This document shows positions 5,308 to 14,629 of a stretch of DNA of 22,834 nucleotides, piece by piece. Made by a program: the position numbers and the translations under genes. Within the stretch, counting starts at the first letter, position 1. Every line of letters starts with the position of its first letter. Under the pieces are notes generated by a model, which ran no database searches, was not told where the DNA came from, and worked only from the letters and a program-made list of their open reading frames with translations. Source of the DNA: Chthonomonadales bacterium (GTDB taxonomy: Bacteria > Armatimonadota > Chthonomonadetes > Chthonomonadales > Chthonomonadaceae); assembly GCA_038217285.1 (NCBI GenBank), contig JBBQPO010000069.1:1-22834 (forward strand), read 5' to 3'.

Positions 5308-6126
5308 TCAGTCGTCAGACCACTTGACGCCGCTCGCAACGATCATCGGCACCACTTTCCCACACGGCATATTGCCGAGGGGAGAGCCAATAACTGCGGT
5401 CGGATCTATACACCATTTTCCCTGGTCCGCTGTATTACGAGGTGCAACGAGAACACTGCCACTGATTACCTTGGTAGTGCCGACATGCCAGCTCATGTTC
5501 TTTGCGTGGCCATCCGAGTACCCGATGTTGAACATCCCTGCGTGCATAAGATTCGAATTCGTAAACTCGCCGATTTCCTTCCAACCGTCTATCGAAATCG
5601 AGTAGAACGGATCCGTTTGTGTATCCCCGAACATGAATGTATCGGCAGGCGCCACTATGGAGGCGAGCGTCACACCCGCACTTACTGAAATGAGACCCGA
5701 GGTTCCCGGTTCCAGAAGCCCGCCTTCGCCGTGATTCTGATTCTGAATCGGACCCCAGTTGTAACCCACTCCCAGACACCGCAGCGTTTTGTCGGCGCGA
5801 AAACATCCGGTGTGTGTGTTGTTTGGGCAGTAAAAGATCTGAGCGTCCTTAGTGTATGGCTGAAGCAAGGCAGGAAAATCGATAGAGCGAACGGGGTTCG
5901 CGCTGAAATCGCGTGTCAGGCTTGGCAGCGTTTCATCGTGATCCTGGGCATACATCAAATTGGCGTGAACGGTCTGTTTTATATTGGAGATACAGGTTGT
6001 TCTCCTTGCATTCTCACGTGCATGGGCGAAGACCGGAAACAAGAGTGCAGCGATAACGGCGATGATCGCAATGACAACCAGAAGTTCGATGAGTGTAAAT
6101 GCGTTCGTCTGTGACGGTTTATTCAT
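5308..6126 (-). CDS. Prepilin-type N-terminal cleavage/methylation protein with DUF1559 and H-X9-DG domain
   Basis: [43 protein letters not shown]...[16 protein letters not shown] and [21 protein letters not shown] upstream. Confidence 0.93.
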
Positions 6127-6204: not shown

Positions 6205-6975
6205 CTATGCCGGAGGCAAAAGGCCATGCTGGAGGCACTTCTGCCGAAACGTCTCCATGCCGTGGCGTTGTTCGGGGGTGAGATCGTAGTTCATCACGTT
6301 GAGGAGATAGTCGCGGGAGCGGTCGAGGGGCAGGTTCATGCGTTCCGCCCAGGTCGAGGCGAGTATTTCCAGGCGTTCAAGACCCCAGGCTTTGGCGCGA
6401 GTGAGAATCGCGGTCATTTCCGGAGTCGCCTGGTCGGTCCGCGCCAGCCAACCGGCGTAGACGAAAGGCAGACCTGTCAGGTCGAACCAGCCCTGGCCGA
6501 GGTCGTAGACCGTGGTGTTGGCATGCAGGGCGAACAGTTTGAGGTCGCCGATGATCAGCCCCGCGTCACAGGTGTGAAGCATGGTTTCGAGATAGGGAGG
6601 CTGCGAAACGTACTGAGGCTGCGCGTGGAACTGTTCTGACAGCAGTATCTTTGTGAGCGCCGCCGAAGTGAGGGAGGAGGTATCGAGCGCGACGGTCCGA
6701 ACCTCCGCGAGCGGAACCTGTGAGAAGAGACGGACACTCTTCACGGCACCGTAGGCTGAGATAGAGATTCCCGGCACCAGAGTCAGACCTGGATTCTGAA
6801 AAGCTTCGAAGATCGAGACGTTGGCGACGTCCAGTTCGTCATGGCGCAGCATCTGCGCGAGCTGCGACGGGACCGCATAGGTCAATTCGACATCGACATT
6901 GCACTCTGCGGAGTGGAACCAGTCGACCAGTGGCTTCGCGTTCAGATAGGGGACGCTGCCGATACGCAGTTTCAT
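6205..6975 (-). CDS. mqnA: Chorismate dehydratase MqnA (futalosine pathway)
   Basis: Start reassigned to MKLRIGSVPYLNAKPL (ATG 6975). Motifs GAVKSVRLFS, SSLTSAAL, IIGD and DLGQGWFDLTGLPFVYA; operon context. Confidence 0.9.
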   Translation of the reverse strand: MKLRIGSVPYLNAKPLVDWFHSAECNVDVELTYAVPSQLAQMLRHDELDVANVSIFEAFQNPGLTLVPGISISAYGAVKSVRLFSQVPLAEVRTVALDTSSLTSAALTKILLSEQFHAQPQYVSQPPYLETMLHTCDAGLIIGDLKLFALHANTTVYDLGQGWFDLTGLPFVYAGWLARTDQATPEMTAILTRAKAWGLERLEILASTWAERMNLPLDRSRDYLLNVMNYDLTPEQRHGMETFRQKCLQHGLLPPA

Positions 6976-7010
6976 GCCTTGTTTCCCTCTCGGCGCTTCT
7001 TCTATTCCCA

Positions 7011-7886
7011 TCAGTGCAACAGCAGGCTGTCGAGCAGGACGAAAGCGAAGAGACTGACGCTGACCCAACCGTTCAGGGTGAAGAACGCCATATCCACGCG
7101 ACTCAGATCGTCCGGCTTCACCAGGCTCTGTTCGTAGAGAATCAGCCCGGCCACCACGGCGACACCCACGTAGTAGAGCCCATGCAGTCCCTCGAGCCTA
7201 CCGATGGCTGCCAGCAACACGACCGCCAGCGCATGTAGGAGGCGAGAAACGTTCAGGGCGTTTGGCTTCCCGATGGCTTTCGGCAGGGAGAACAGGGCGG
7301 TGCTGCGGTCGAAATCGTAGTCCTGCAAGGCATAGATGATGTCGAAGCCACCGATCCAGAGCATGACTACGGCGCCAAGCAAAATCGGCACGACACTTAG
7401 CGTGCCTGTCACCGCGATCCACGCGCCAATCGGAGCGATGCCGATCGCGAAGCCGAGGAAGAGGTGGCAGAGGGCCGTGAAGCGCTTGGTGTACGAGTAG
7501 CCTAGAATGGCGCCGAGCGCTACCGGAGATAGGAGCAGGCAGAGTCGATTGAGCTGCCAGGCAGCAGTCTCGAAGAGGACCACGGCGACAATAAGAAAGC
7601 TCCCGACCTGGGCGCGAGAAAGCAGGCCGGCCGGAAGGTGCCGGTTTGCTGTGCGCGGATTGTCCCGGTCGAAATCCGCGTCTACCAGCCGATTGAACGC
7701 CATCGCGGCGCTGCGCGCCCCGACCATCGCCACCACAATCCAGAACAGCGTCAGGCCATCGAAGCCATGTGCCGTGTGCCGGATGGCGAGCAGAAAGCTG
7801 ATGAGCGCGAAGGGCAACGCGAAAATCGTGTGCTCGAACTTGACCATCGCTAACAGGAGACGGGAACGTGAGAGGAAGGCGTTCAT
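7011..7886 (-). CDS. mqnP: UbiA-family polyprenyltransferase, MqnP-type
   Basis: VKFEHTIFALPFA, AMAFNRLVDADFDRDNPRTANRHLPAG, YSYTKRFT and GFDIIYALQDYDFDR; multiple TM helices; GAGGAG RBS before ATG 7886. Confidence 0.92.
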   Translation of the reverse strand: MNAFLSRSRLLLAMVKFEHTIFALPFALISFLLAIRHTAHGFDGLTLFWIVVAMVGARSAAMAFNRLVDADFDRDNPRTANRHLPAGLLSRAQVGSFLIVAVVLFETAAWQLNRLCLLLSPVALGAILGYSYTKRFTALCHLFLGFAIGIAPIGAWIAVTGTLSVVPILLGAVVMLWIGGFDIIYALQDYDFDRSTALFSLPKAIGKPNALNVSRLLHALAVVLLAAIGRLEGLHGLYYVGVAVVAGLILYEQSLVKPDDLSRVDMAFFTLNGWVSVSLFAFVLLDSLLLH

Positions 7887-7891
7887 GGCGT

Positions 7892-8527
7892 TTACTCCTC
7901 CGAAAACTGCCACTGGGGCACGAGAGTCTGTTCGATGCCGAGCTGCTGCAAGATGCGTCCGACAACGTGATCGACCAGATCTGCAATGGTCTGGGGTTTA
8001 TGGTAGAAGCCCGGCGCGGCCGGAAGTATGATGGCCCCTGCCTCGGCAAGATGGGTCATGTTGCGCAGATGGATGAGATTCCAGGGTGTTTCGCGGGGAA
8101 CGAGGATCAGCTTGCGACGCTCTTTGAGGCAGACGTCGGCGGCCCGCGTGATGAGGTCGTCGCTGATACCGTTGGCGATCCGGCCTGCCGTCCCCATCGA
8201 ACAGGGAACGATCACCATGCCGTCATGCCGGAACGATCCGCTCGCAGGCGGGGAGAAGTAGTCCTTTTTGTCCAGGAAGTGCAGGGCAGGGCAGGGATGA
8301 CCGAGCAGCGTCTCCGCGCTCAGGTTGCGTGGGTTGACGACGCGGTCCGTCTCCAGGCTGATGACCTGCAGCGCCTGATCTGAGAGCGCGACATAGATGT
8401 CGGCATAGTAGCGTACGGCCTCTTCGAGGAAGCGGAGGGCGTAGGGCGCGCCGCTGGCGCCGGTAATCGCGACGACCAGTCTGCCGGTGGAGGAGAGGGG
8501 AGCCGCCGCAGGAGTGCTGTTTGCCAT
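7892..8527 (-). CDS. ubiX: Flavin prenyltransferase UbiX (prFMN synthase; MqnM-type)
   Basis: ITGASGAPYA, PASGS, IVPCSMGT, RAADVCLKERR, PRETP and PGFYHKP. Start taken as ATG 8527; the ORF-track extension overlaps the Nudix gene. Confidence 0.95.
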   Translation of the reverse strand: MANSTPAAAPLSSTGRLVVAITGASGAPYALRFLEEAVRYYADIYVALSDQALQVISLETDRVVNPRNLSAETLLGHPCPALHFLDKKDYFSPPASGSFRHDGMVIVPCSMGTAGRIANGISDDLITRAADVCLKERRKLILVPRETPWNLIHLRNMTHLAEAGAIILPAAPGFYHKPQTIADLVDHVVGRILQQLGIEQTLVPQWQFSEE

Positions 8528-8529
8528 GG

Positions 8530-9120
8530 TCAAGTCCCCAGAAAAGCGCGCAGGCGACGCATGCCGTTCGGTATCGTCTTCAAGACCTCCATCGCTTCCC
8601 GCAGCAGGATGCGATCGTGCTGATCCAGTCGATTTTCGCAGTCCAGGCGGCGGAACAGGTCGCGGGCGGTGATGATCCCTGCCGGATCGCTGCGTATCGG
8701 ATCCAGGGCACGCAGACGACCGACATACATGCCCATATAAGAGAAGGCATGCGGGTACTCGCGATTGGGCAGCCGCTCCGTACATTCTATCTTCAAGACC
8801 GCGAACAGTTGGAATTCTGGCTCCAGATAGGCGCACGCCTCTTCGTAGACTTCCCGGTGCATGGCCTCCTCAAGTGTTTCGCCGATCTCAAGACGTCCGC
8901 CGGGAAAACCGAACTGGCCCTTGCGGTCGCGTACCACCAGAATGCGGTCGGCCTGAAACGCGACGATATGCACGGAAGTTACCGGCGCATCGGTCGGCAG
9001 CACGAGGCAGCGCGAGGCTGTGAGGCGAACGGGCTGCTGGCCCCATTGCATCTCCACGACGAACAGAGGTGCGTCGTTTAACGGTTCCGGGTTATTCGGT
9101 TCTAAAACAGTCTCTTCCAA
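8530..9120 (-). CDS. NUDIX hydrolase
   Basis: Nudix box G-RLEIG-E-TLEEAMH-REVYEE preceded by FPG. TTG start 6 nt after the ubiD stop; the exact start is uncertain. Confidence 0.88.
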   Translation of the reverse strand: MEETVLEPNNPEPLNDAPLFVVEMQWGQQPVRLTASRCLVLPTDAPVTSVHIVAFQADRILVVRDRKGQFGFPGGRLEIGETLEEAMHREVYEEACAYLEPEFQLFAVLKIECTERLPNREYPHAFSYMGMYVGRLRALDPIRSDPAGIITARDLFRRLDCENRLDQHDRILLREAMEVLKTIPNGMRRLRAFLGT

Positions 9121-9126
9121 TTTTAC

Positions 9127-10584
9127 CTAAATTCCCAGCTCATTCCAGATCAGGTCCACACGCGCCTTGACGTCGGCGGACATCTCGATCACATCGGGCC
9201 ATTCGCGGTCGAAGCCCTCAGCAGGCAGTTTGCGGGTACAGTCGAAGCCAATCTTCGAGCCGAATCCCAGCGAACGTGAGGAGTGGTCCAGGACGTCGAT
9301 CGGACCGCGCACGATGCAGGTGTCGCGCTCCGGGTCGATGTTGTTGCCCAAACGCCATAGACACTCCTGTACGTTTTGCACGTTCACATCCGCATCAAAT
9401 ACGAAAATCATTTTGGTGAACATCGCCTGCCCGAGGCCCCAGAGCGCATGCATCACCTTGAACGCCTGCCCCGGATAGCGCTTCTTGATGGAGACGAGCG
9501 CGATGTTGTGAAAAATCCCTTCGACCGGCAGATTCATATCCACGACTTCGGGCAGCGTCAGCCGGAGCAGAGGCAGAAACAACCGTTCGGTCGCCTTACC
9601 AAGCCAGCCGTCTTCCATCGGAGGCTGTCCGACAATCGTGCAGGGATAGACAGGGCTGCGACGATGGGTGATCGCCGTAATGTGTACAACAGGATACATG
9701 TCGGCCAGCGAATAGTAGCCGGTGTGATCCCCAAAGGGGCCTTCCATTCGGCGCTCGGTAAGGTCTATCTTACCTTCGATCACGATCTCGGCGTCTTCCG
9801 GGACTTCGAGGTCGACCGTTTTGGCCTTGACCAGATGCACGGGTTTCTTGCGCAGAAAGCCCGCGAACAGCATCTCGTCGATACCTGCCGGGAGCGGTGC
9901 GGTCGCGGCGTATGTCAGAGCCGGGTCTCCGCCCAGCACGATGGCGACCTCGATACTTTGGCCCTTTTCGGCCCGCAAGCGCGCATGTTCTGCGCCGACT
10001 TTGTGCATCTGCCAGTGCATACCGACCGTGCGCCGATCAAACACCTGTACCCTGTACATTCCGACGTTGCGCTTGCCGGTGTTCGGATCGTTCGTGAAGA
10101 CCAATGGCAACGTGATATAACGCCCACCGTCTTGTGGCCAGCAGTGCAGGATAGGGAATAGGCCGAGATCGATGTCATCGCCGGTCAGGACGACTTCCTG
10201 GCAACGCCCCTTGCCGCTGTCGTGGCGCGGCGGCATTTTCGCGAGCACAGCCAGTTTGGGCAAAAATTCACGAGCGGCCCTTAGCATTCCGCCGGGCACT
10301 TCGGGCTTCAACAGGGCCTCGATTTCGCAGGCGATCTCCTCGAAGTCCTGCACACCCAGCGCCATACTCATGCGGCGGCGCGATCCGAAGGCGTTGATGA
10401 TCAGCGGGATCCGACTGCCACGCGGGTTTTCAAACAGCAGAGCCGGACCACCGTCCGGCATCTTCATCACGCGGTCCGCGATCTCCGTTATTTCGAGATA
10501 AGGATCGACTGGCGCGGTGATTCGGCGCAGTTCGCCGGCCTGTTCGAGTTGAGCGATAAAATCTTGAAAATCACGGTAAGCCAT
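9127..10584 (-). CDS. ubiD: UbiD-family prFMN-dependent decarboxylase, menaquinone biosynthesis type (MqnL)
   Basis: Start MAYRDFQDF (ATG 10584, GGAG upstream). Motifs GPALLFENP, WPQDGGRYIT, RNVGMYR, EGPFGDHTGYY and GSKIGFDCT. Confidence 0.95.
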   Translation of the reverse strand: MAYRDFQDFIAQLEQAGELRRITAPVDPYLEITEIADRVMKMPDGGPALLFENPRGSRIPLIINAFGSRRRMSMALGVQDFEEIACEIEALLKPEVPGGMLRAAREFLPKLAVLAKMPPRHDSGKGRCQEVVLTGDDIDLGLFPILHCWPQDGGRYITLPLVFTNDPNTGKRNVGMYRVQVFDRRTVGMHWQMHKVGAEHARLRAEKGQSIEVAIVLGGDPALTYAATAPLPAGIDEMLFAGFLRKKPVHLVKAKTVDLEVPEDAEIVIEGKIDLTERRMEGPFGDHTGYYSLADMYPVVHITAITHRRSPVYPCTIVGQPPMEDGWLGKATERLFLPLLRLTLPEVVDMNLPVEGIFHNIALVSIKKRYPGQAFKVMHALWGLGQAMFTKMIFVFDADVNVQNVQECLWRLGNNIDPERDTCIVRGPIDVLDHSSRSLGFGSKIGFDCTRKLPAEGFDREWPDVIEMSADVKARVDLIWNELGI

Positions 10585-10645: not shown

Positions 10646-10674
10646 AGTATACCTCTCTCCCCTACGAAAATCAA
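10646..10674 (-). promoter_or_regulatory. sigma70 promoter for the ubiD-nudix-ubiX-mqnP-mqnA operon
   Basis: Minus strand TTGATT-N17-TATACT, about 60 nt upstream of ubiD. Confidence 0.7.
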
Positions 10675-10718: not shown

Positions 10719-10747
10719 TTGATTTTGGCCTCCCAAACTGCTATAAT
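10719..10747 (+). promoter_or_regulatory. sigma70 promoter for sbcD
   Basis: TTGATT-N17-TATAAT with an extended -10 TG. Confidence 0.8.
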
Positions 10748-10789: not shown

Positions 10790-12037
10790 ATGACCCAGGA
10801 CGTGCGGGTGATGCATTTTGCCGATACCCACTTCGGTGTGGAGTTGTATGGGCGGCTGGACCCGGCGACCGGAATGAACACGCGCCTTCAGGACTTCAAA
10901 CAGTCGCTGACGGAGGCGATTGAAAAGGCCCTGGAGCTCGATATCCACCTTGCCGTCTTCGCAGGGGATGCCTACAAGACTCGCGATCCGCGCCAGACCG
11001 ATCAGCGCGAATTCGCGGGCTGCATCCGACACCTGACCGACCGGGGAATCCCGGTCGTGCTGCTCGCAGGCAACCATGATATGCCCTCCGTGCGCGGTCG
11101 CGCCAATGCCGTCGAGATCTACCGCACACTTGGCGTCTCCAATGTCCACGTCGTCCACCGACCGGAGCTGACGCTCATTCAGACTGCGGCAGGGCCGGTT
11201 CGTATTGCGCCGATGCCTTATCTGATGAAGGGGATCTCCGTGGCCCGCGAGGATTTCCAGGGCAAGACCCTGGACGAGACGCGCCTGCTGCTGGAAGCGA
11301 AGTACGTCGATTTTATCGGCGATATGGCCGATCAGATTCGCGAGGCCGACGACGCGATTCCCACCATTTTAGTCGGGCATTTCTGGGTCAACGGTGCGCG
11401 GCTCTCGAGTTGGCAGAAGGGCTATCTCAACGATGTTGAGCCCAAAGTCCCGCTCGCCGCTCTAACGGATCCTGCGTTCGACTACGTCGCCCTCGGACAC
11501 ATTCACAAGCATCAGGACTTGAACCCACACGGGCAGCCGCACGTCGTCTACTGCGGCAGTCCTGACCGGATCGACTTTGGTGAGAAGGATGAAGAGAAGG
11601 GGTTCGTACTGGTGCATCTGCGTAAAGGTGGGGCGGAATACGCGTTTATTCCCGTGACCGCCAGCCGTCCCATGCTCGACATCCAGGTCGATGCCGACTG
11701 CGATGAGCCGACCGAGCGCATCGTCGCGGAGATCAGGCGGCACTCGTTGCGCAACGCCATTGTCAAGGTCTCCTATAGTATTGGGCAGGAGCGACAGGCT
11801 CTCGTGCGCGAACGCGAGCTGCGCGAAGCCCTTCAAAACGCCTTTATGACCGTCACGATCGCGCGCAAAGTGCAGCGAGATGTCACCGAGCGCAGCCGCC
11901 AGTTCAACGAGACTCGCACTCCTCGCGAAGCGCTGGAACTCTATATAGAACAGAGCGAGAAGTTGATCCCGCACCGGGAGCGCCTGCTCCAGTTCGCGGA
12001 TCCACTGCTTCAAGCCGTGCAAGAACAGGACGCCTGA
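10790..12037 (+). CDS. sbcD: Nuclease SbcCD subunit D (Mre11-like)
   Basis: Metallophosphoesterase motifs ADTHFG, AGD, AGNHD, VGH, YVALGHIH and YCGSPDRIDFGE. Confidence 0.95.
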   Translation: MTQDVRVMHFADTHFGVELYGRLDPATGMNTRLQDFKQSLTEAIEKALELDIHLAVFAGDAYKTRDPRQTDQREFAGCIRHLTDRGIPVVLLAGNHDMPSVRGRANAVEIYRTLGVSNVHVVHRPELTLIQTAAGPVRIAPMPYLMKGISVAREDFQGKTLDETRLLLEAKYVDFIGDMADQIREADDAIPTILVGHFWVNGARLSSWQKGYLNDVEPKVPLAALTDPAFDYVALGHIHKHQDLNPHGQPHVVYCGSPDRIDFGEKDEEKGFVLVHLRKGGAEYAFIPVTASRPMLDIQVDADCDEPTERIVAEIRRHSLRNAIVKVSYSIGQERQALVRERELREALQNAFMTVTIARKVQRDVTERSRQFNETRTPREALELYIEQSEKLIPHRERLLQFADPLLQAVQEQDA

Positions 12038-12052
12038 TCTGTCGTCACAACC

Positions 12053-14629
12053 ATGATCCCTATCTCCCTCACCCTGAAAAACTTCATGAGCTACGGCCCG
12101 CAGGGCGAAACGCTGCCATTCGAGAACCTGCGCGTCGCCTGCCTGACCGGCGACAACGGCAACGGCAAATCGGCCCTGCTCGATGGCCTCACCTGGGTGC
12201 TCTGGGGCAAGACACGGGTATCGTCCGTCGGGAGTGTGTCGCAGGACGACCTGATTCGCCTCGGGGAGGAGGAGTGCGAAGTTCGGCTGGAGTTTGAGCT
12301 GAACGATCAGCGGTATCGCGTGGTGAAGAAGAGGCGTAAAGGCAAGGCGACGGCTGCGAGCGACTGGCAGTTGGCACAGCGCGACGACGAGGGGATCTGG
12401 AACCCCATCGGCGGCAACAGCCAGGCGGAGACCGGCAGACAGATCGTGCAGCTCCTCAATATGGAGTACGAAACCTTCCTCAACTCTGCGTACCTGCAGC
12501 AGGGGCGGGCCGACGAATTTACGCGCCAGACGCCTGCCAAACGGAAAGGCATACTCGGGGAGATCCTGGGCCTGGACCGCTACGACCGCCTCGAAGCGAT
12601 GGCCAAGGAGAAGTACCGGGAGCGTAAGGAGCAGGTCGATGAGTTAGACGGTGAGATCCGACTGTTAGAGACGCAGGTGGCGCGACGTGTCGGCTACCAG
12701 GAGCAGTCGGCGGAGGCTACCGCCCAACTGGGGGAGGCGGAGGTCCGGCTCGCCGGGTTGACCGCTGTGGTCAAAACCGTGCAGGAGCGTCTGGCAAAAA
12801 TGGATCAGGTCGCCGCTGCCATCGAGGAGGCGCGGTCGGGCTCTCTGCGCATACACGGTGAAATGGGACAACGGGGCCGTGAACTGAGCGACAGGTCGGC
12901 GCGCGTCAAGGCGCTCGAAACCGTTCGCGTACAGCGTGCCGCGATTATCGCGGACTACGACGGACTTCGACAGGCGCGCCAACGGGCGGAGCTTCTGGAA
13001 CCTCAGATCGAAGAGTTTCGTCGGATTAAGACAGAGTACGACACCGCTTTCGCGGCTGTCGAGATGGAGCGGGTTCGCCTTGAAGGCGAGCTGCGGACCT
13101 ATCAGGCCGAGTTGAAAACGGTTCGGCGGCGGAGCGAAGAGTGCGCAGAGCTGGACCGGCGGATCGCGGCCCTGGAGCAGGAGCTCGCAGGCGATCCCGA
13201 AACCAGGGTTGCGCTCCTTCAGGCCGAGGCGGTGAAGCAGGCGGCCCTGGAGGCCTTTAACGATCTGCGGGTGCGGAACGAACGCCTGAAACTTGAAATT
13301 AGCGATCAGGAGGAGTTCCTGAAGATTTTGGCCGCGCCCATCGCGCGGTGCCCGGTCTGCGAAAGCGATCTGGAGGGCGACAAGCGCCTGGAAGTTTTGG
13401 CGCGGCAGAACGAACGGCAGGCCGAGCGTAAGGCAGCGTTGAAAGCGATTGCCGCCGAGGGCCGTGCGCACAAACAGGCCCTGGATATGGCGACCGAATC
13501 GGTCCTGGCCCTCCAGCGGCAGTGCAACGATCTGAGCGCGAAGCAGAGCCGCCTGCAGGAGCAGCAGCGCCAGCGGGACGGATTGCGGCAGCAGGGACTC
13601 GATGCCGAGAGCGCCCAGAAGCAAGCGGAGACGGCTCAGACGCAGTTGGAACGTGGGACCTTTGCGATGCCAAAGCGCATTCACGCCCAACGCCTGAAGT
13701 CGGAGCTGGACGGACTGGCACTGATTCGCCCAGAGTATGAGAATGTCCGGGCCGCGATCAAGCGGTTCGAGGGGGCCGAAAAACGTTACCATCAGTTGCA
13801 GGAAGCGGAGGCGAGTTGGGATCAGGAGATCGCGGAGCAGGCGCGGCTGGAGGCAGTTCTTATCGAGTTGAGGCAGAGCTATGAAGCCGCCTGCCAAAAG
13901 CAAGAAGCGCTGACGGCGAAGCTGGCCGAGGGCGAAGCGGTCAATCGCGAATTTGCCATCGCGGAGAGTGAGCGCCAGACGTGCCAGCAGCAGGTGAACG
14001 ACATCAAGGTGCAGATCGGAACGTTCACAAACTATGTCCGTGGTTGTGATGAGGCGGAGCAGCAGAAGAAGGCGAAAGAGGCCCAACGCAAAACGCTTCA
14101 CCAGGAGCAGTGGCTCTATCATCAGTTGACGGCGGCCTTCGGCAAGAAGGGGATACAGACGTTCATCATCGAGAACGCCATTCCGGAACTGGCCGCCGAG
14201 GCGAACGAACTGCTGGCAAGAATCACCGACAACGCCATGCAGATCTCGTTCGAAACGACCCGACCCGCGCGGTCCAATAGTAATGAGATCGAAACCCTGG
14301 ACATCCGGATTCAGGACGATGCCGGGATTCGCCCTTACGAGCTGTTCAGCGGAGGCGAGGCGTTCCGCGTTAATTTTGCCGTGCGGATCGCGCTCTCACG
14401 TCTGCTGGCGCGCCGGGCGGGAGCGCGTCTTCAGACCCTTATCCTGGACGAGGGCTTTGGAACGCAGGACGGCAAGGGTCGTGAAAAACTGATCGAGGCG
14501 ATCGATAGTATCAAGGACGATTTCGAGAAAATTCTTGTCATAACCCACGTGGATGAACTGAAGGATGCCTTTGCACAGCGCATCGAAATTACAAAGGATC
14601 ACGACGGTTCGCATATTCATATGCTGTGA
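12053..14629 (+). CDS. sbcC: SbcC/Rad50 SMC-like ATPase
   Basis: Walker A GDNGNGKS, Q-loop LQQG, coiled coil with central CPVC zinc hook, signature FSGGE, Walker B LILDEGFG and H-loop ITH. Confidence 0.95.
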   Translation: MIPISLTLKNFMSYGPQGETLPFENLRVACLTGDNGNGKSALLDGLTWVLWGKTRVSSVGSVSQDDLIRLGEEECEVRLEFELNDQRYRVVKKRRKGKATAASDWQLAQRDDEGIWNPIGGNSQAETGRQIVQLLNMEYETFLNSAYLQQGRADEFTRQTPAKRKGILGEILGLDRYDRLEAMAKEKYRERKEQVDELDGEIRLLETQVARRVGYQEQSAEATAQLGEAEVRLAGLTAVVKTVQERLAKMDQVAAAIEEARSGSLRIHGEMGQRGRELSDRSARVKALETVRVQRAAIIADYDGLRQARQRAELLEPQIEEFRRIKTEYDTAFAAVEMERVRLEGELRTYQAELKTVRRRSEECAELDRRIAALEQELAGDPETRVALLQAEAVKQAALEAFNDLRVRNERLKLEISDQEEFLKILAAPIARCPVCESDLEGDKRLEVLARQNERQAERKAALKAIAAEGRAHKQALDMATESVLALQRQCNDLSAKQSRLQEQQRQRDGLRQQGLDAESAQKQAETAQTQLERGTFAMPKRIHAQRLKSELDGLALIRPEYENVRAAIKRFEGAEKRYHQLQEAEASWDQEIAEQARLEAVLIELRQSYEAACQKQEALTAKLAEGEAVNREFAIAESERQTCQQQVNDIKVQIGTFTNYVRGCDEAEQQKKAKEAQRKTLHQEQWLYHQLTAAFGKKGIQTFIIENAIPELAAEANELLARITDNAMQISFETTRPARSNSNEIETLDIRIQDDAGIRPYELFSGGEAFRVNFAVRIALSRLLARRAGARLQTLILDEGFGTQDGKGREKLIEAIDSIKDDFEKILVITHVDELKDAFAQRIEITKDHDGSHIHML

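Follow-up and report, generated by a model that had tools for sequence, protein, structure and literature searches.

Systems that pair the flavin prenyltransferase UbiX with a UbiD-type decarboxylase are widespread, and some characterised UbiX enzymes need dimethylallyl monophosphate (DMAP) to make prenylated flavin mononucleotide (prFMN). The late futalosine pathway of menaquinone synthesis is still unproven, and we know of no dedicated bacterial enzyme that makes DMAP. For the window studied here, the whole 22,834-nucleotide (nt) stretch of contig JBBQPO010000069.1 from a Chthonomonadales bacterium (assembly GCA_038217285.1, Armatimonadota), we describe a gene for a Nudix hydrolase that lies between ubiD and ubiX in a menaquinone gene cluster, and we regard it as an evenly balanced proposition that this enzyme supplies DMAP for UbiX from dimethylallyl diphosphate (DMAPP), where we infer the substrate, the product and the use of that product by UbiX. 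The closest described systems come from Escherichia coli. Passages of one report name its Nudix hydrolases, NudJ and relatives, as suppliers of DMAP for prFMN and also state that ThiM can form DMAP from prenol (PMC12359138, citing Wang et al. for the former), so that an earlier note on this DNA, which had called the cellular source of DMAP poorly defined, overstated the case: the route from Nudix through DMAP to UbiX is already in print. Passages of another report state that NudB yields isopentenyl monophosphate and DMAP and list the PAP2 enzymes PgpB and YbjG among the farnesol-forming phosphatases acting on farnesyl diphosphate (PMC6058358). The human enzymes NUDT15 and NUDT18 are described in part of a preprint as hydrolysing prenyl diphosphates to monophosphates (bioRxiv 10.1101/2023.11.29.569174).

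MqnP, MqnL and MqnM were predicted and named by Ravcheev and Thiele (PMC4746308), a portion of whose text contains neither the word Nudix nor the word phosphatase. Our literature search (Wang et al. 2018 not covered) returned no Nudix or PAP2 gene described within a ubiX/ubiD or mqn cluster. What is new here is that Nudix and PAP2 genes alternate across the order and that a Nudix subfamily peculiar to these lineages is fixed within the prFMN operon of the futalosine pathway. In the window, the minus-strand order from head to tail is ubiD, Nudix, ubiX, mqnP and mqnA, as the earlier note had read it, and both the Pfam and NCBIfam identities and the coordinates agree with that reading.

The linkage was counted at 35 chthonomonad loci by tblastn with the five proteins of the window. 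ubiX is the next pathway gene downstream of Nudix, on the same strand, at all 34 loci with downstream DNA (L055 ends inside the Nudix gene and stands outside this count), and the gap between the two is below about 400 nt in 33 loci and 1.0 kilobase (kb) in L050. mqnP follows ubiX in 33 of these 34, none being seen in L034 within the available DNA, and ubiD lies upstream of Nudix at 29 of the 34 loci with upstream DNA, L052 being cut at a contig end and left out of the upstream count. The five Nudix loci without ubiD (L040, L042, L045, L051 and L054) are one clade in the UbiX tree and are therefore counted as one event; Nudix still stands beside ubiX in all of them, and in L051 it is the first gene of the operon, preceded by glycosyltransferase genes in divergent orientation. 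Among the linked loci, L046 shows the arrangement in a metagenome-assembled genome attributed to the cultured species Chthonomonas calidirosea. A second set of 20 loci from the same genomes gave ubiX and mqnP at every locus and ubiD at 18. Identity across the linked loci ranges from 52 to 91% for Nudix and from 69 to 92% for UbiX, and because the genomes are kin, these counts show persistence through divergence and not independent recurrences. The same arrangement was found in f14, an Armatimonadota family outside the order, where four of five loci have a Nudix ortholog of 35-40% identity directly upstream of ubiX, and these orthologs keep the residues that mark the subfamily, W26, G27, Q29, V31, L33, S49, H51, R120, Y128, D145, P146 and R153. 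In L101, the fifth f14 locus, ubiX follows ubiD directly. In the FastTree phylogeny of UbiX, tried as a way to count gains and losses of Nudix, support was poor (0.5-0.86) and the f14 loci were not sister to the main family, so that it favours neither one gain nor a transfer. On these data the link between Nudix and ubiX runs deep in two Armatimonadota lineages.

In the sister families the slot between ubiD and ubiX holds a different phosphohydrolase. A Nudix ortholog was found in 20 of the 24 other genomes of Chthonomonadaceae (f1), with E <= 2.3e-56, and in none of the 16 genomes of the sister families f2 and f3, where the gene order is ubiD, a PAP2 gene of about 220 codons, ubiX, mqnP, mqnA. 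This PAP2 gene occupies the slot in 15 of 15 ortholog-bearing genomes (loci L057-L061, L065, L075 and L246-L253; genomes G025-G040), and of these 15, G028, G030 and eight more were placed by tblastn. The ortholog distribution mirrors that of Nudix, with 14/14 genomes in f3, 1/2 in f2 (the miss is a 64%-complete genome) and no strong match in the 24 genomes of f1, which gave one weak paralog match (E 7.5e-6); the genome of the window has three other PAP2 genes and no ortholog of the slot PAP2, the best match being 34% identical over 67 residues. Membership of the PAP2 family is clear from PF01569 (E 7e-19 to 2e-25, 68-90 bits against a gathering score of 27.2, in all five proteins scanned), and the motifs PSGH and SRx5Hx3D are present in six of six, while a strict pattern for the first motif (KxxxxxxRP) matched two of the six and a K..RP variant was seen in the rest. 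The closest NCBIfam models are undecaprenyl-diphosphatases, and the three slot PAP2 proteins compared stay below the cut-offs of these equivalogs (SepP and YbjG-type, 32-47 against 229-250 bits). Unrelated folds in the same slot with mirrored distributions are what typically marks non-orthologous gene displacement, and the genomic pattern suggests that this is the case here.

The nature of the replacing enzyme also bears on the kind of reaction. With a PAP2 protein in the slot, a diphosphate-to-monophosphate step fits better than hydrolysis of flavin adenine dinucleotide (FAD). A pyrophosphatase that cleaves FAD to FMN and AMP, the alternative raised in the earlier note, could raise the FMN supply for UbiX, and it is true that the gene adjoins that of the FMN-using UbiX and that Nudix enzymes typically cleave nucleoside-diphosphate-X compounds; however, the PAP2 family removes terminal phosphates of lipid or prenyl (di)phosphates and is not expected to split FAD, and riboflavin kinase yields FMN directly, before FAD is made from it, so that no hydrolysis is needed. 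In addition, the protein has no above-threshold match to the ADP-sugar or NAD(H) Nudix equivalogs, and the motifs that we take to define the NADH, CoA and ADP-ribose subfamilies are not seen around its box, so we consider FAD hydrolysis very unlikely.

We therefore return to DMAP supply. Apart from the polyprenyl diphosphate that MqnP consumes and the FMN and DMAP(P) that UbiX takes, the late pathway has no phosphorylated small molecules, and Nudix and PAP2 enzymes have a single documented substrate class in common, prenyl diphosphates, with one documented outcome, the monophosphate. The assembly has two full-length genes for IspH (LytB; C33:6000-6827 and C28:8220-9044, 292.7 and 259.8 bits, above the curated cut-off), a single UbiX match, a UbiD gene that is the sole member of its family found, and five Nudix genes, four of them besides the operon copy. 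Taken with the shared prenyl-diphosphate chemistry, these make the conversion of DMAPP to DMAP the most economical reading. In the proposed scheme, the Nudix protein would be a cytoplasmic diphosphatase co-transcribed with MqnL (UbiD), MqnM (UbiX), MqnP and MqnA; IspH of the methylerythritol phosphate (MEP) pathway would make DMAPP, which Nudix would hydrolyse to DMAP and phosphate; UbiX would take DMAP as the prenyl donor for prFMN; and prFMN would load the only UbiD of the genome, which would decarboxylate the prenylated naphthoate toward menaquinone. The Nudix gene may have been kept beside ubiX since prFMN would here serve only the menaquinone pathway. A broader proposal, that the late futalosine operon of Chthonomonadales has a dedicated slot for DMAP supply between ubiD and ubiX, filled by either Nudix or PAP2, and that the formation of DMAP is a committed, encoded step, is put forward more tentatively, and we lean somewhat against it. 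If it is right, DMAP for prFMN and menaquinone synthesis would not arise merely as a side product of housekeeping enzymes with broad specificity. E. coli already offers precedents for the enzyme family, the proposed reaction and the link to prFMN, and by that analogy the locus would hold a dedicated variant of a known route.

A number of observations weigh against DMAP supply, and the first concerns the slot PAP2. It is polytopic and integral to the membrane, and the positive-inside rule predicts an outward position for its catalytic loops, with 0-1 lysine and arginine residues in the C3 loop that holds the catalytic His and Asp, 5-6 in the loop between the first two transmembrane segments and 2-6 in the C-terminal tail, a crude estimate from a hydropathy window and charge counts. 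PgpB and YbjG, its known relatives, act in the periplasm (PMC12401180), and an outward active site, if the model is right, would be hard to square with cytosolic DMAPP. Nudix could instead act on another prenyl diphosphate or lipid-linked phosphate tied to MqnP, for example in trimming or regulating the polyprenyl-diphosphate pool, with the membrane PAP2 sharing the role. mqnP is in the same operon at Nudix and PAP2 loci alike, the slot PAP2 is embedded in the membrane and closest to undecaprenyl-diphosphate phosphatases, and NudB, NUDT15/18 and NUDX1 are reported to accept C10-C15 prenyl diphosphates. Against this, MqnP, as a member of the UbiA family, needs a diphosphate, and dephosphorylation of the polyprenyl donor would oppose it; after the operon was rearranged, Nudix stayed immediately upstream of ubiX; and a soluble Nudix and an outward-facing PAP2 would not share a substrate in one membrane leaflet. 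We consider a substrate tied to MqnP quite unlikely.

The donor specificity of UbiX gives DMAP supply no help either. In the sections of Marshall et al. (2019, PMC6541611) that bear on this, Pseudomonas aeruginosa UbiX (PaUbiX) is DMAP-specific, with F181 blocking the beta-phosphate; Aspergillus niger UbiX needs DMAPP, as does E. coli UbiX in those authors' hands; the O157 enzyme of E. coli, where His replaces F181, accepts both donors; and the F181H mutant of PaUbiX stays DMAP-specific, so that this position is not the sole determinant. Like the O157 enzyme, the UbiX of the window has His there, and this residue is compatible with DMAPP. In the whole column, the UbiX proteins linked to Nudix have F (18), H (14), M (1) and Q (1), those linked to PAP2 have T (5) and H (2), and the unlinked ones have T (43), F (29), S (10) and others. 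We tried this residue as a predictor of DMAP or DMAPP use and dropped it, as it is variable and uncorrelated with neighbour type. Judged from the sequences, there is no sign that the linked UbiX enzymes are specially DMAP-dependent.

Comparisons of the Nudix protein itself give a fold but no substrate. The AlphaFold (AF2) model (mean predicted local distance difference test 90.4, predicted template modelling (TM) score 0.84) shows an alpha/beta/alpha Nudix core with an N-terminal beta-hairpin and three C-terminal helices added to it. Foldseek against the PDB returned many Nudix structures at probability 1.00, led by Bacillus subtilis RppH (BsRppH) and the Aquifex diadenosine tetraphosphate (Ap4A) hydrolase, with the geranyl-diphosphate hydrolase NUDX1 at rank 18, and the ESM Atlas search gave generic NUDIX clusters only. 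The family-profile ranking of PDB chains was likewise led by the Ap4A hydrolase 3i7u (E 3.9e-13), BsRppH and the diadenosine hexaphosphate hydrolase Ndx1, with NUDT18, NUDT15 and NUDX1 at about 1e-9 to 1e-8 and NudJ (3dku) at 9.6e-8. A single-sequence search had put human NUDT18 first (E 3.2e-6), followed by Ndx1, NUDT15 and NUDX1, and we set these matches aside as a clue to prenyl diphosphates once Ap4A and RNA hydrolases had come out ahead in the profile search. The prenyl-diphosphate-hydrolysing Nudix group has no defining sequence signature, and similarity to its members is weak and not above that to other Nudix enzymes. The protein also stays below the equivalogs for MutT-type 8-oxo-dGTP hydrolases (TIGR00586, 29.1 against 97.9 bits; NF008044, 25.3 against 148), for enzymes of ADP compounds (NudE NF008736, 18.2 against 169; NAD diphosphatase NF001299, 19.9 against 158) and for RNA pyrophosphohydrolases (YtkD TIGR02705, 33.4 against 154.4; PRK00714, 23.8 against 139). 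Sequence and fold comparisons thus do not fix the substrate, every NCBIfam Nudix equivalog being far below its cut-off. A predicted complex of UbiX and Nudix scored 0.00 and was counted neither for nor against binding.

The reach of the link is narrow. The enzyme is missing from two members of the window's own family, G016 (98% complete), with the order proS-ubiX-mqnP-mqnA, and G022 (75% complete), where 166 nt separate ubiD from ubiX. Of 151 sampled Armatimonadota genomes, 115 have UbiX, and 100 of the 102 previously unexamined UbiX loci outside the window's family were taken, leaving out G084 and G168, the latter a further member of that family. One of the 100 carries PAP2 (L075, in f3), and four of the other 99, all in f14, have Nudix directly upstream; the family hidden Markov model (HMM) run over 4011 six-frame open reading frames (ORFs) of these loci matched only the four in f14, and the PAP2 HMM matched only L075. 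At the 94 other Armatimonadota loci there was no Nudix within 3-3.5 kb of ubiX. Pfam was also run on all 342 ORFs that flank ubiX on its own strand and have 100 residues or more, excluding those that coincide with genes identified by tblastn, and none of them matched a NUDIX, PAP2 or other phosphatase family. A metagenome scan with a diverse UbiX alignment confirmed at least 594 loci; the best 80 were taken and gave one locus with Nudix (L166, its UbiX 84% identical to that of the window) and 79 with no Nudix-box ORF or HMM match within 3 kb. The recurrent linkage of Nudix to ubiX, ubiD and mqnP that the earlier note had proposed to look for thus holds in Chthonomonadaceae and f14 and fails elsewhere: outside these families the pairing occurs in none of 173 ubiX loci and there is no convergent case, by a regular expression and an HMM that each recover three of the four other Nudix genes of the window's genome and so miss about a quarter of unrelated Nudix genes. 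The gap between ubiD and ubiX can also hold unrelated genes, namely two tandem DUF4058 genes (L117:1738-3438(+)) and a FemAB gene (L152:4129-5301(-)).

The main rival takes these results at face value: the Nudix protein would be a housekeeping hydrolase of dinucleoside polyphosphates, RNA 5'-pyrophosphates or (d)NTPs, inserted ancestrally beside ubiX, co-transcribed and without a role in menaquinone or prFMN synthesis. The structures that lead both rankings, the best though far sub-threshold NCBIfam match to YtkD, the two family members without the gene, the empty outside loci and the readiness of the gap to take DUF4058 or FemAB genes all fit such an insertion. What speaks against it is that adjacency to ubiX survives divergence to 35-40% identity and the loss of ubiD from the locus, that PAP2, a different phosphohydrolase, fills the same slot with a strictly complementary distribution, and that invariant residues of its own outside the box and confinement to a lineage are unusual for a core housekeeping enzyme, while the genome has four other Nudix genes available for such roles. 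We consider an incidental housekeeping enzyme unlikely on balance; if the protein does prove to be an ordinary nucleotide hydrolase, the finding shrinks to a conserved but incidental gene insertion.

Elsewhere in Armatimonadota the neighbours of ubiX are usually pathway genes, namely ubiD or, in L111, L115, L123, L136, L149 and L154, a ubiE/menG methyltransferase gene, some loci having unrelated genes there, and an MqnC-like radical-SAM gene (CofH_C plus Radical_SAM) often lies between mqnP and mqnA (loci listed for this arrangement: L098, L100, L104, L105, L107, L108, L118, L119, L154 and L161). From the varying neighbours of ubiX and the position of mqnC, the late Mqn operon appears to be modular across the phylum. 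Two of the 79 metagenomic loci have a convergent gene for a DedA(VTT)-PAP2 fusion immediately downstream of ubiX (L213:3594-5255(-) and L237:3662-5767(-)), the second with an added LssY_C domain, and a ribonucleotide reductase gene with a LAGLIDADG intein lies beside ubiX in an Armatimonadota locus (L139:1336-4131(-)).

The Nudix gene is real, functional and under purifying selection. Upstream of residue 20 it has no in-frame start other than TTG, orthologs conserve residues 19-26 (consensus LFxVxMxWG), and the model confidently places residues 20-26 in a beta-strand; on these three grounds the TTG start was accepted. The protein scores 42.8 bits with PF00293 against a gathering score of 21.1. 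Its box reads G75-RLEIG-E81-TLEEAMH-R89-E90-V-Y-E93-E94-A-C96-A97, so that the catalytic core G x5 E x7 R E U x E E is present (G75, E81, R89, E90, V91, E93 and E94), and G74, G75, E81, R89, E90, E93 and E94 are invariant in 17 orthologs and in the four divergent f14 orthologs. The terminal x-G-U is absent, A95-C96-A97 standing in its place in the window and EEAxA or EEVRT in relatives; the translation thus bears out the earlier note, which had described retained catalytic glutamates and an ACA ending, and the deviation lowers membership in the canonical box and not in the fold. Beyond the box, the 17-ortholog alignment has as further invariants W26, G27, Q29, P30, V31, T48-S49-V50-H51, D65-R66, R120, Y122, Y128, Y132, D145-P146-A147-G148, R153 and F156. 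The ratio of nonsynonymous to synonymous substitution rates (dN/dS), calculated against three orthologs of the same genus and a fourth that is 69% identical, is 0.036-0.168, compared with 0.03-0.19 for the neighbouring genes, ratios that are rough because dS is saturated (>1).

Database searches suggest that this subfamily is small and confined to Chthonomonadaceae and f14. Among 278 candidates from a word-indexed search of 5.8 billion proteins, 140 matched at E <= 1e-3, and the 120 of these that were listed are all at least 53% identical and bear generic names only, 'MutT' or 'YjhB, NUDIX family' (JGI). A profile search of 1.84 billion representatives gave only 8 at E <= 1e-30 and 72 at E <= 1e-10, out of 1707 general Nudix matches, and more distant homologs were found at about 30% identity (P0130-P0134). 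With one genome per GTDB species, 36 Nudix loci were confirmed, of which 35 are titled Chthonomonadaceae, Chthonomonadales, Chthonomonas, Armatimonadota or 'bacterium' and the last is a weak archaeal match of 28% identity. One ortholog sequence (P0083) stands under two NCBI accessions, labelled Chloroherpetonaceae and Chthonomonadaceae, and one of these two assignments of a metagenome-assembled genome is probably a binning or labelling error.

The coordinates of the operon are collected in Table 1. The spacers between its five genes are 6, 2 and 5 nt, followed by a 1-nt overlap or 35 nt depending on the start of mqnA. Read from the sequence, the ubiD TAG is followed after 6 nt by the TTG of Nudix, the Nudix TGA after 2 nt by the ATG of ubiX, and the ubiX TAA after 5 nt by the ATG of mqnP, while mqnA has one possible ATG that overlaps the mqnP TGA and, 35 nt beyond that TGA, the MKLRIGS start. 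The gaps of 6 and 2 nt given in the earlier note are therefore correct, the first resting on the supported TTG start. From this spacing the five genes are likely to form a single transcription unit. For the same note's claim of one promoter the sequence offers a weak check: a 9/12 match lies upstream of ubiD and no terminator-like match falls in the spacers between the five genes, but both scans are close to the shuffled background, with four sigma-70-like matches in the region against 1.8 +/- 1.0 in shuffles, the site upstream of ubiD being one of the four, and six terminator-like matches against 3.7 +/- 2.2.

Table 1. Features of the ubiD-Nudix-ubiX-mqnP-mqnA operon in the window (aa, amino acids)
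Feature	Position	Strand	Basis
mqnL/ubiD, prFMN-dependent menaquinone-pathway decarboxylase, 485 aa	9127-10584	-	PF01977/PF20695/PF20696; TIGR03701
Nudix hydrolase gene, 196 aa, TTG start; candidate prenyl-diphosphate (DMAPP) diphosphatase	8530-9120	-	PF00293
Nudix box, residues G75-A97 (GRLEIGETLEEAMHREVYEEACA)	8830-8898	-	translation
mqnM/ubiX, flavin prenyltransferase, 211 aa	7892-8527	-	TIGR00421
mqnP-like UbiA-family polyprenyltransferase, 291 aa	7011-7886	-	PF01040; TIGR01475
mqnA, chorismate dehydratase family, 256 aa from the MKLRIGS start; alternative ATG at 7011	6205-6975	-	PF02621
sigma-70-like promoter match TTGATT-17-TATACT	10646-10674	-	consensus only, 9/12; about 60 nt upstream of the ubiD ATG

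The pathway genes are identified with unequal precision. UbiD passes the 'menaquinone biosynthesis decarboxylase' equivalog TIGR03701 (MqnL) with 633.4 bits against a cut-off of 495.9. UbiX passes TIGR00421 (202 against 108.9 bits) and NF004685 (208.9 against 188), and its nearest PDB relative is PaUbiX (E 2e-54, a match in the 54% range to PaUbiX structures). The UbiA-family protein passes the broader UbiA-like TIGR01475 (304.4 bits against 180.8) and stays below the MqnP exception models (NF041586, 309.1 against 430; NF041584, 284.3 against 420), and the name MqnP-like was given because of the context with mqnA, mqnL and mqnM. MqnA scores 192.4 bits with PF02621 against a gathering score of 26 and has no NCBIfam match. 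The operon is flanked by genes without relation to the pathway, for PEP carboxylase, for a DUF1559/N-terminal-methylation-motif protein and, divergently, for sbcD and sbcC. Directly downstream of mqnA (5308-6126, minus strand) is the DUF1559 gene, whose 272-residue product combines a prepilin-type methylation motif at the N terminus with the start of DUF1559, a type of protein common in Planctomycetota and here in an Armatimonadota genome. sbcD (Metallophos, 415 residues) and sbcC (AAA_23/SMC_N/SbcC Walker B, 858 residues) at 10790-14629 on the plus strand diverge from the ubiD promoter region and have a strong promoter-like match of their own at 10719-10747 (10/12, with an extended -10 TG).

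If DMAP supply is the right reading, this operon-encoded, co-evolving hydrolase would for the first time point, from genome data, to a committed DMAP-forming step, and the late futalosine pathway would gain an accessory enzyme. The swap between Nudix and PAP2 offers two independent proteins as candidates for that step, and co-expression of such a Nudix enzyme could raise the prFMN loading of UbiD-type (de)carboxylases in biocatalysis.

Among known systems, the E. coli enzymes NudB, NudF, NudI and NudJ, in the accounts of them cited above, share with the window's Nudix the superfamily and the proposed reaction, DMAPP to DMAP and phosphate for UbiX; they are promiscuous housekeeping enzymes encoded away from ubiX and ubiD, whereas the window's Nudix belongs to a lineage-restricted subfamily between those two genes and scores only 18 bits, below cut-off, with NudI- and NudE-type models. 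NUDX1 of Arabidopsis and rose and human NUDT15 and NUDT18 are small MutT-like proteins, described in parts of the literature as taking prenyl diphosphates to monophosphates, and are among its solved relatives; the likeness is limited to a region of about 50 residues around the Nudix box and is no better than that to Ap4A and RNA hydrolases, and these enzymes are eukaryotic and prefer C10 substrates, whereas the window's protein adds the N-terminal hairpin and the C-terminal helices. Closest by profile and fold among solved structures are the Ap4A hydrolase of Aquifex aeolicus (3i7u; the profile match spans residues 37-166 of the profile) and RppH/YtkD of B. subtilis (4jzu), with Foldseek E values of about 1e-7 and TM scores of 0.5-0.78, but both are about 20% identical to the window's Nudix and their genes are not linked to ubiX. 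YbjG, PgpB and SepP are the nearest named relatives of the slot PAP2, at scores of 41-47 bits against cut-offs of 229-250, and share with it the motifs KxxxxxxRP, PSGH and SRxxxxxHxxxD, although these known enzymes act on undecaprenyl diphosphate (C55-PP) in the periplasm and the slot PAP2 is encoded inside a menaquinone operon. A further parallel is given by the prFMN chaperone LpdD and the prFMN maturase PhdC, small extra genes found with UbiD and UbiX that are reported to aid the formation of an active holo-decarboxylase; they have unrelated folds and bind or oxidise prFMN after UbiX, whereas the window's Nudix would act before UbiX, on the prenyl donor.

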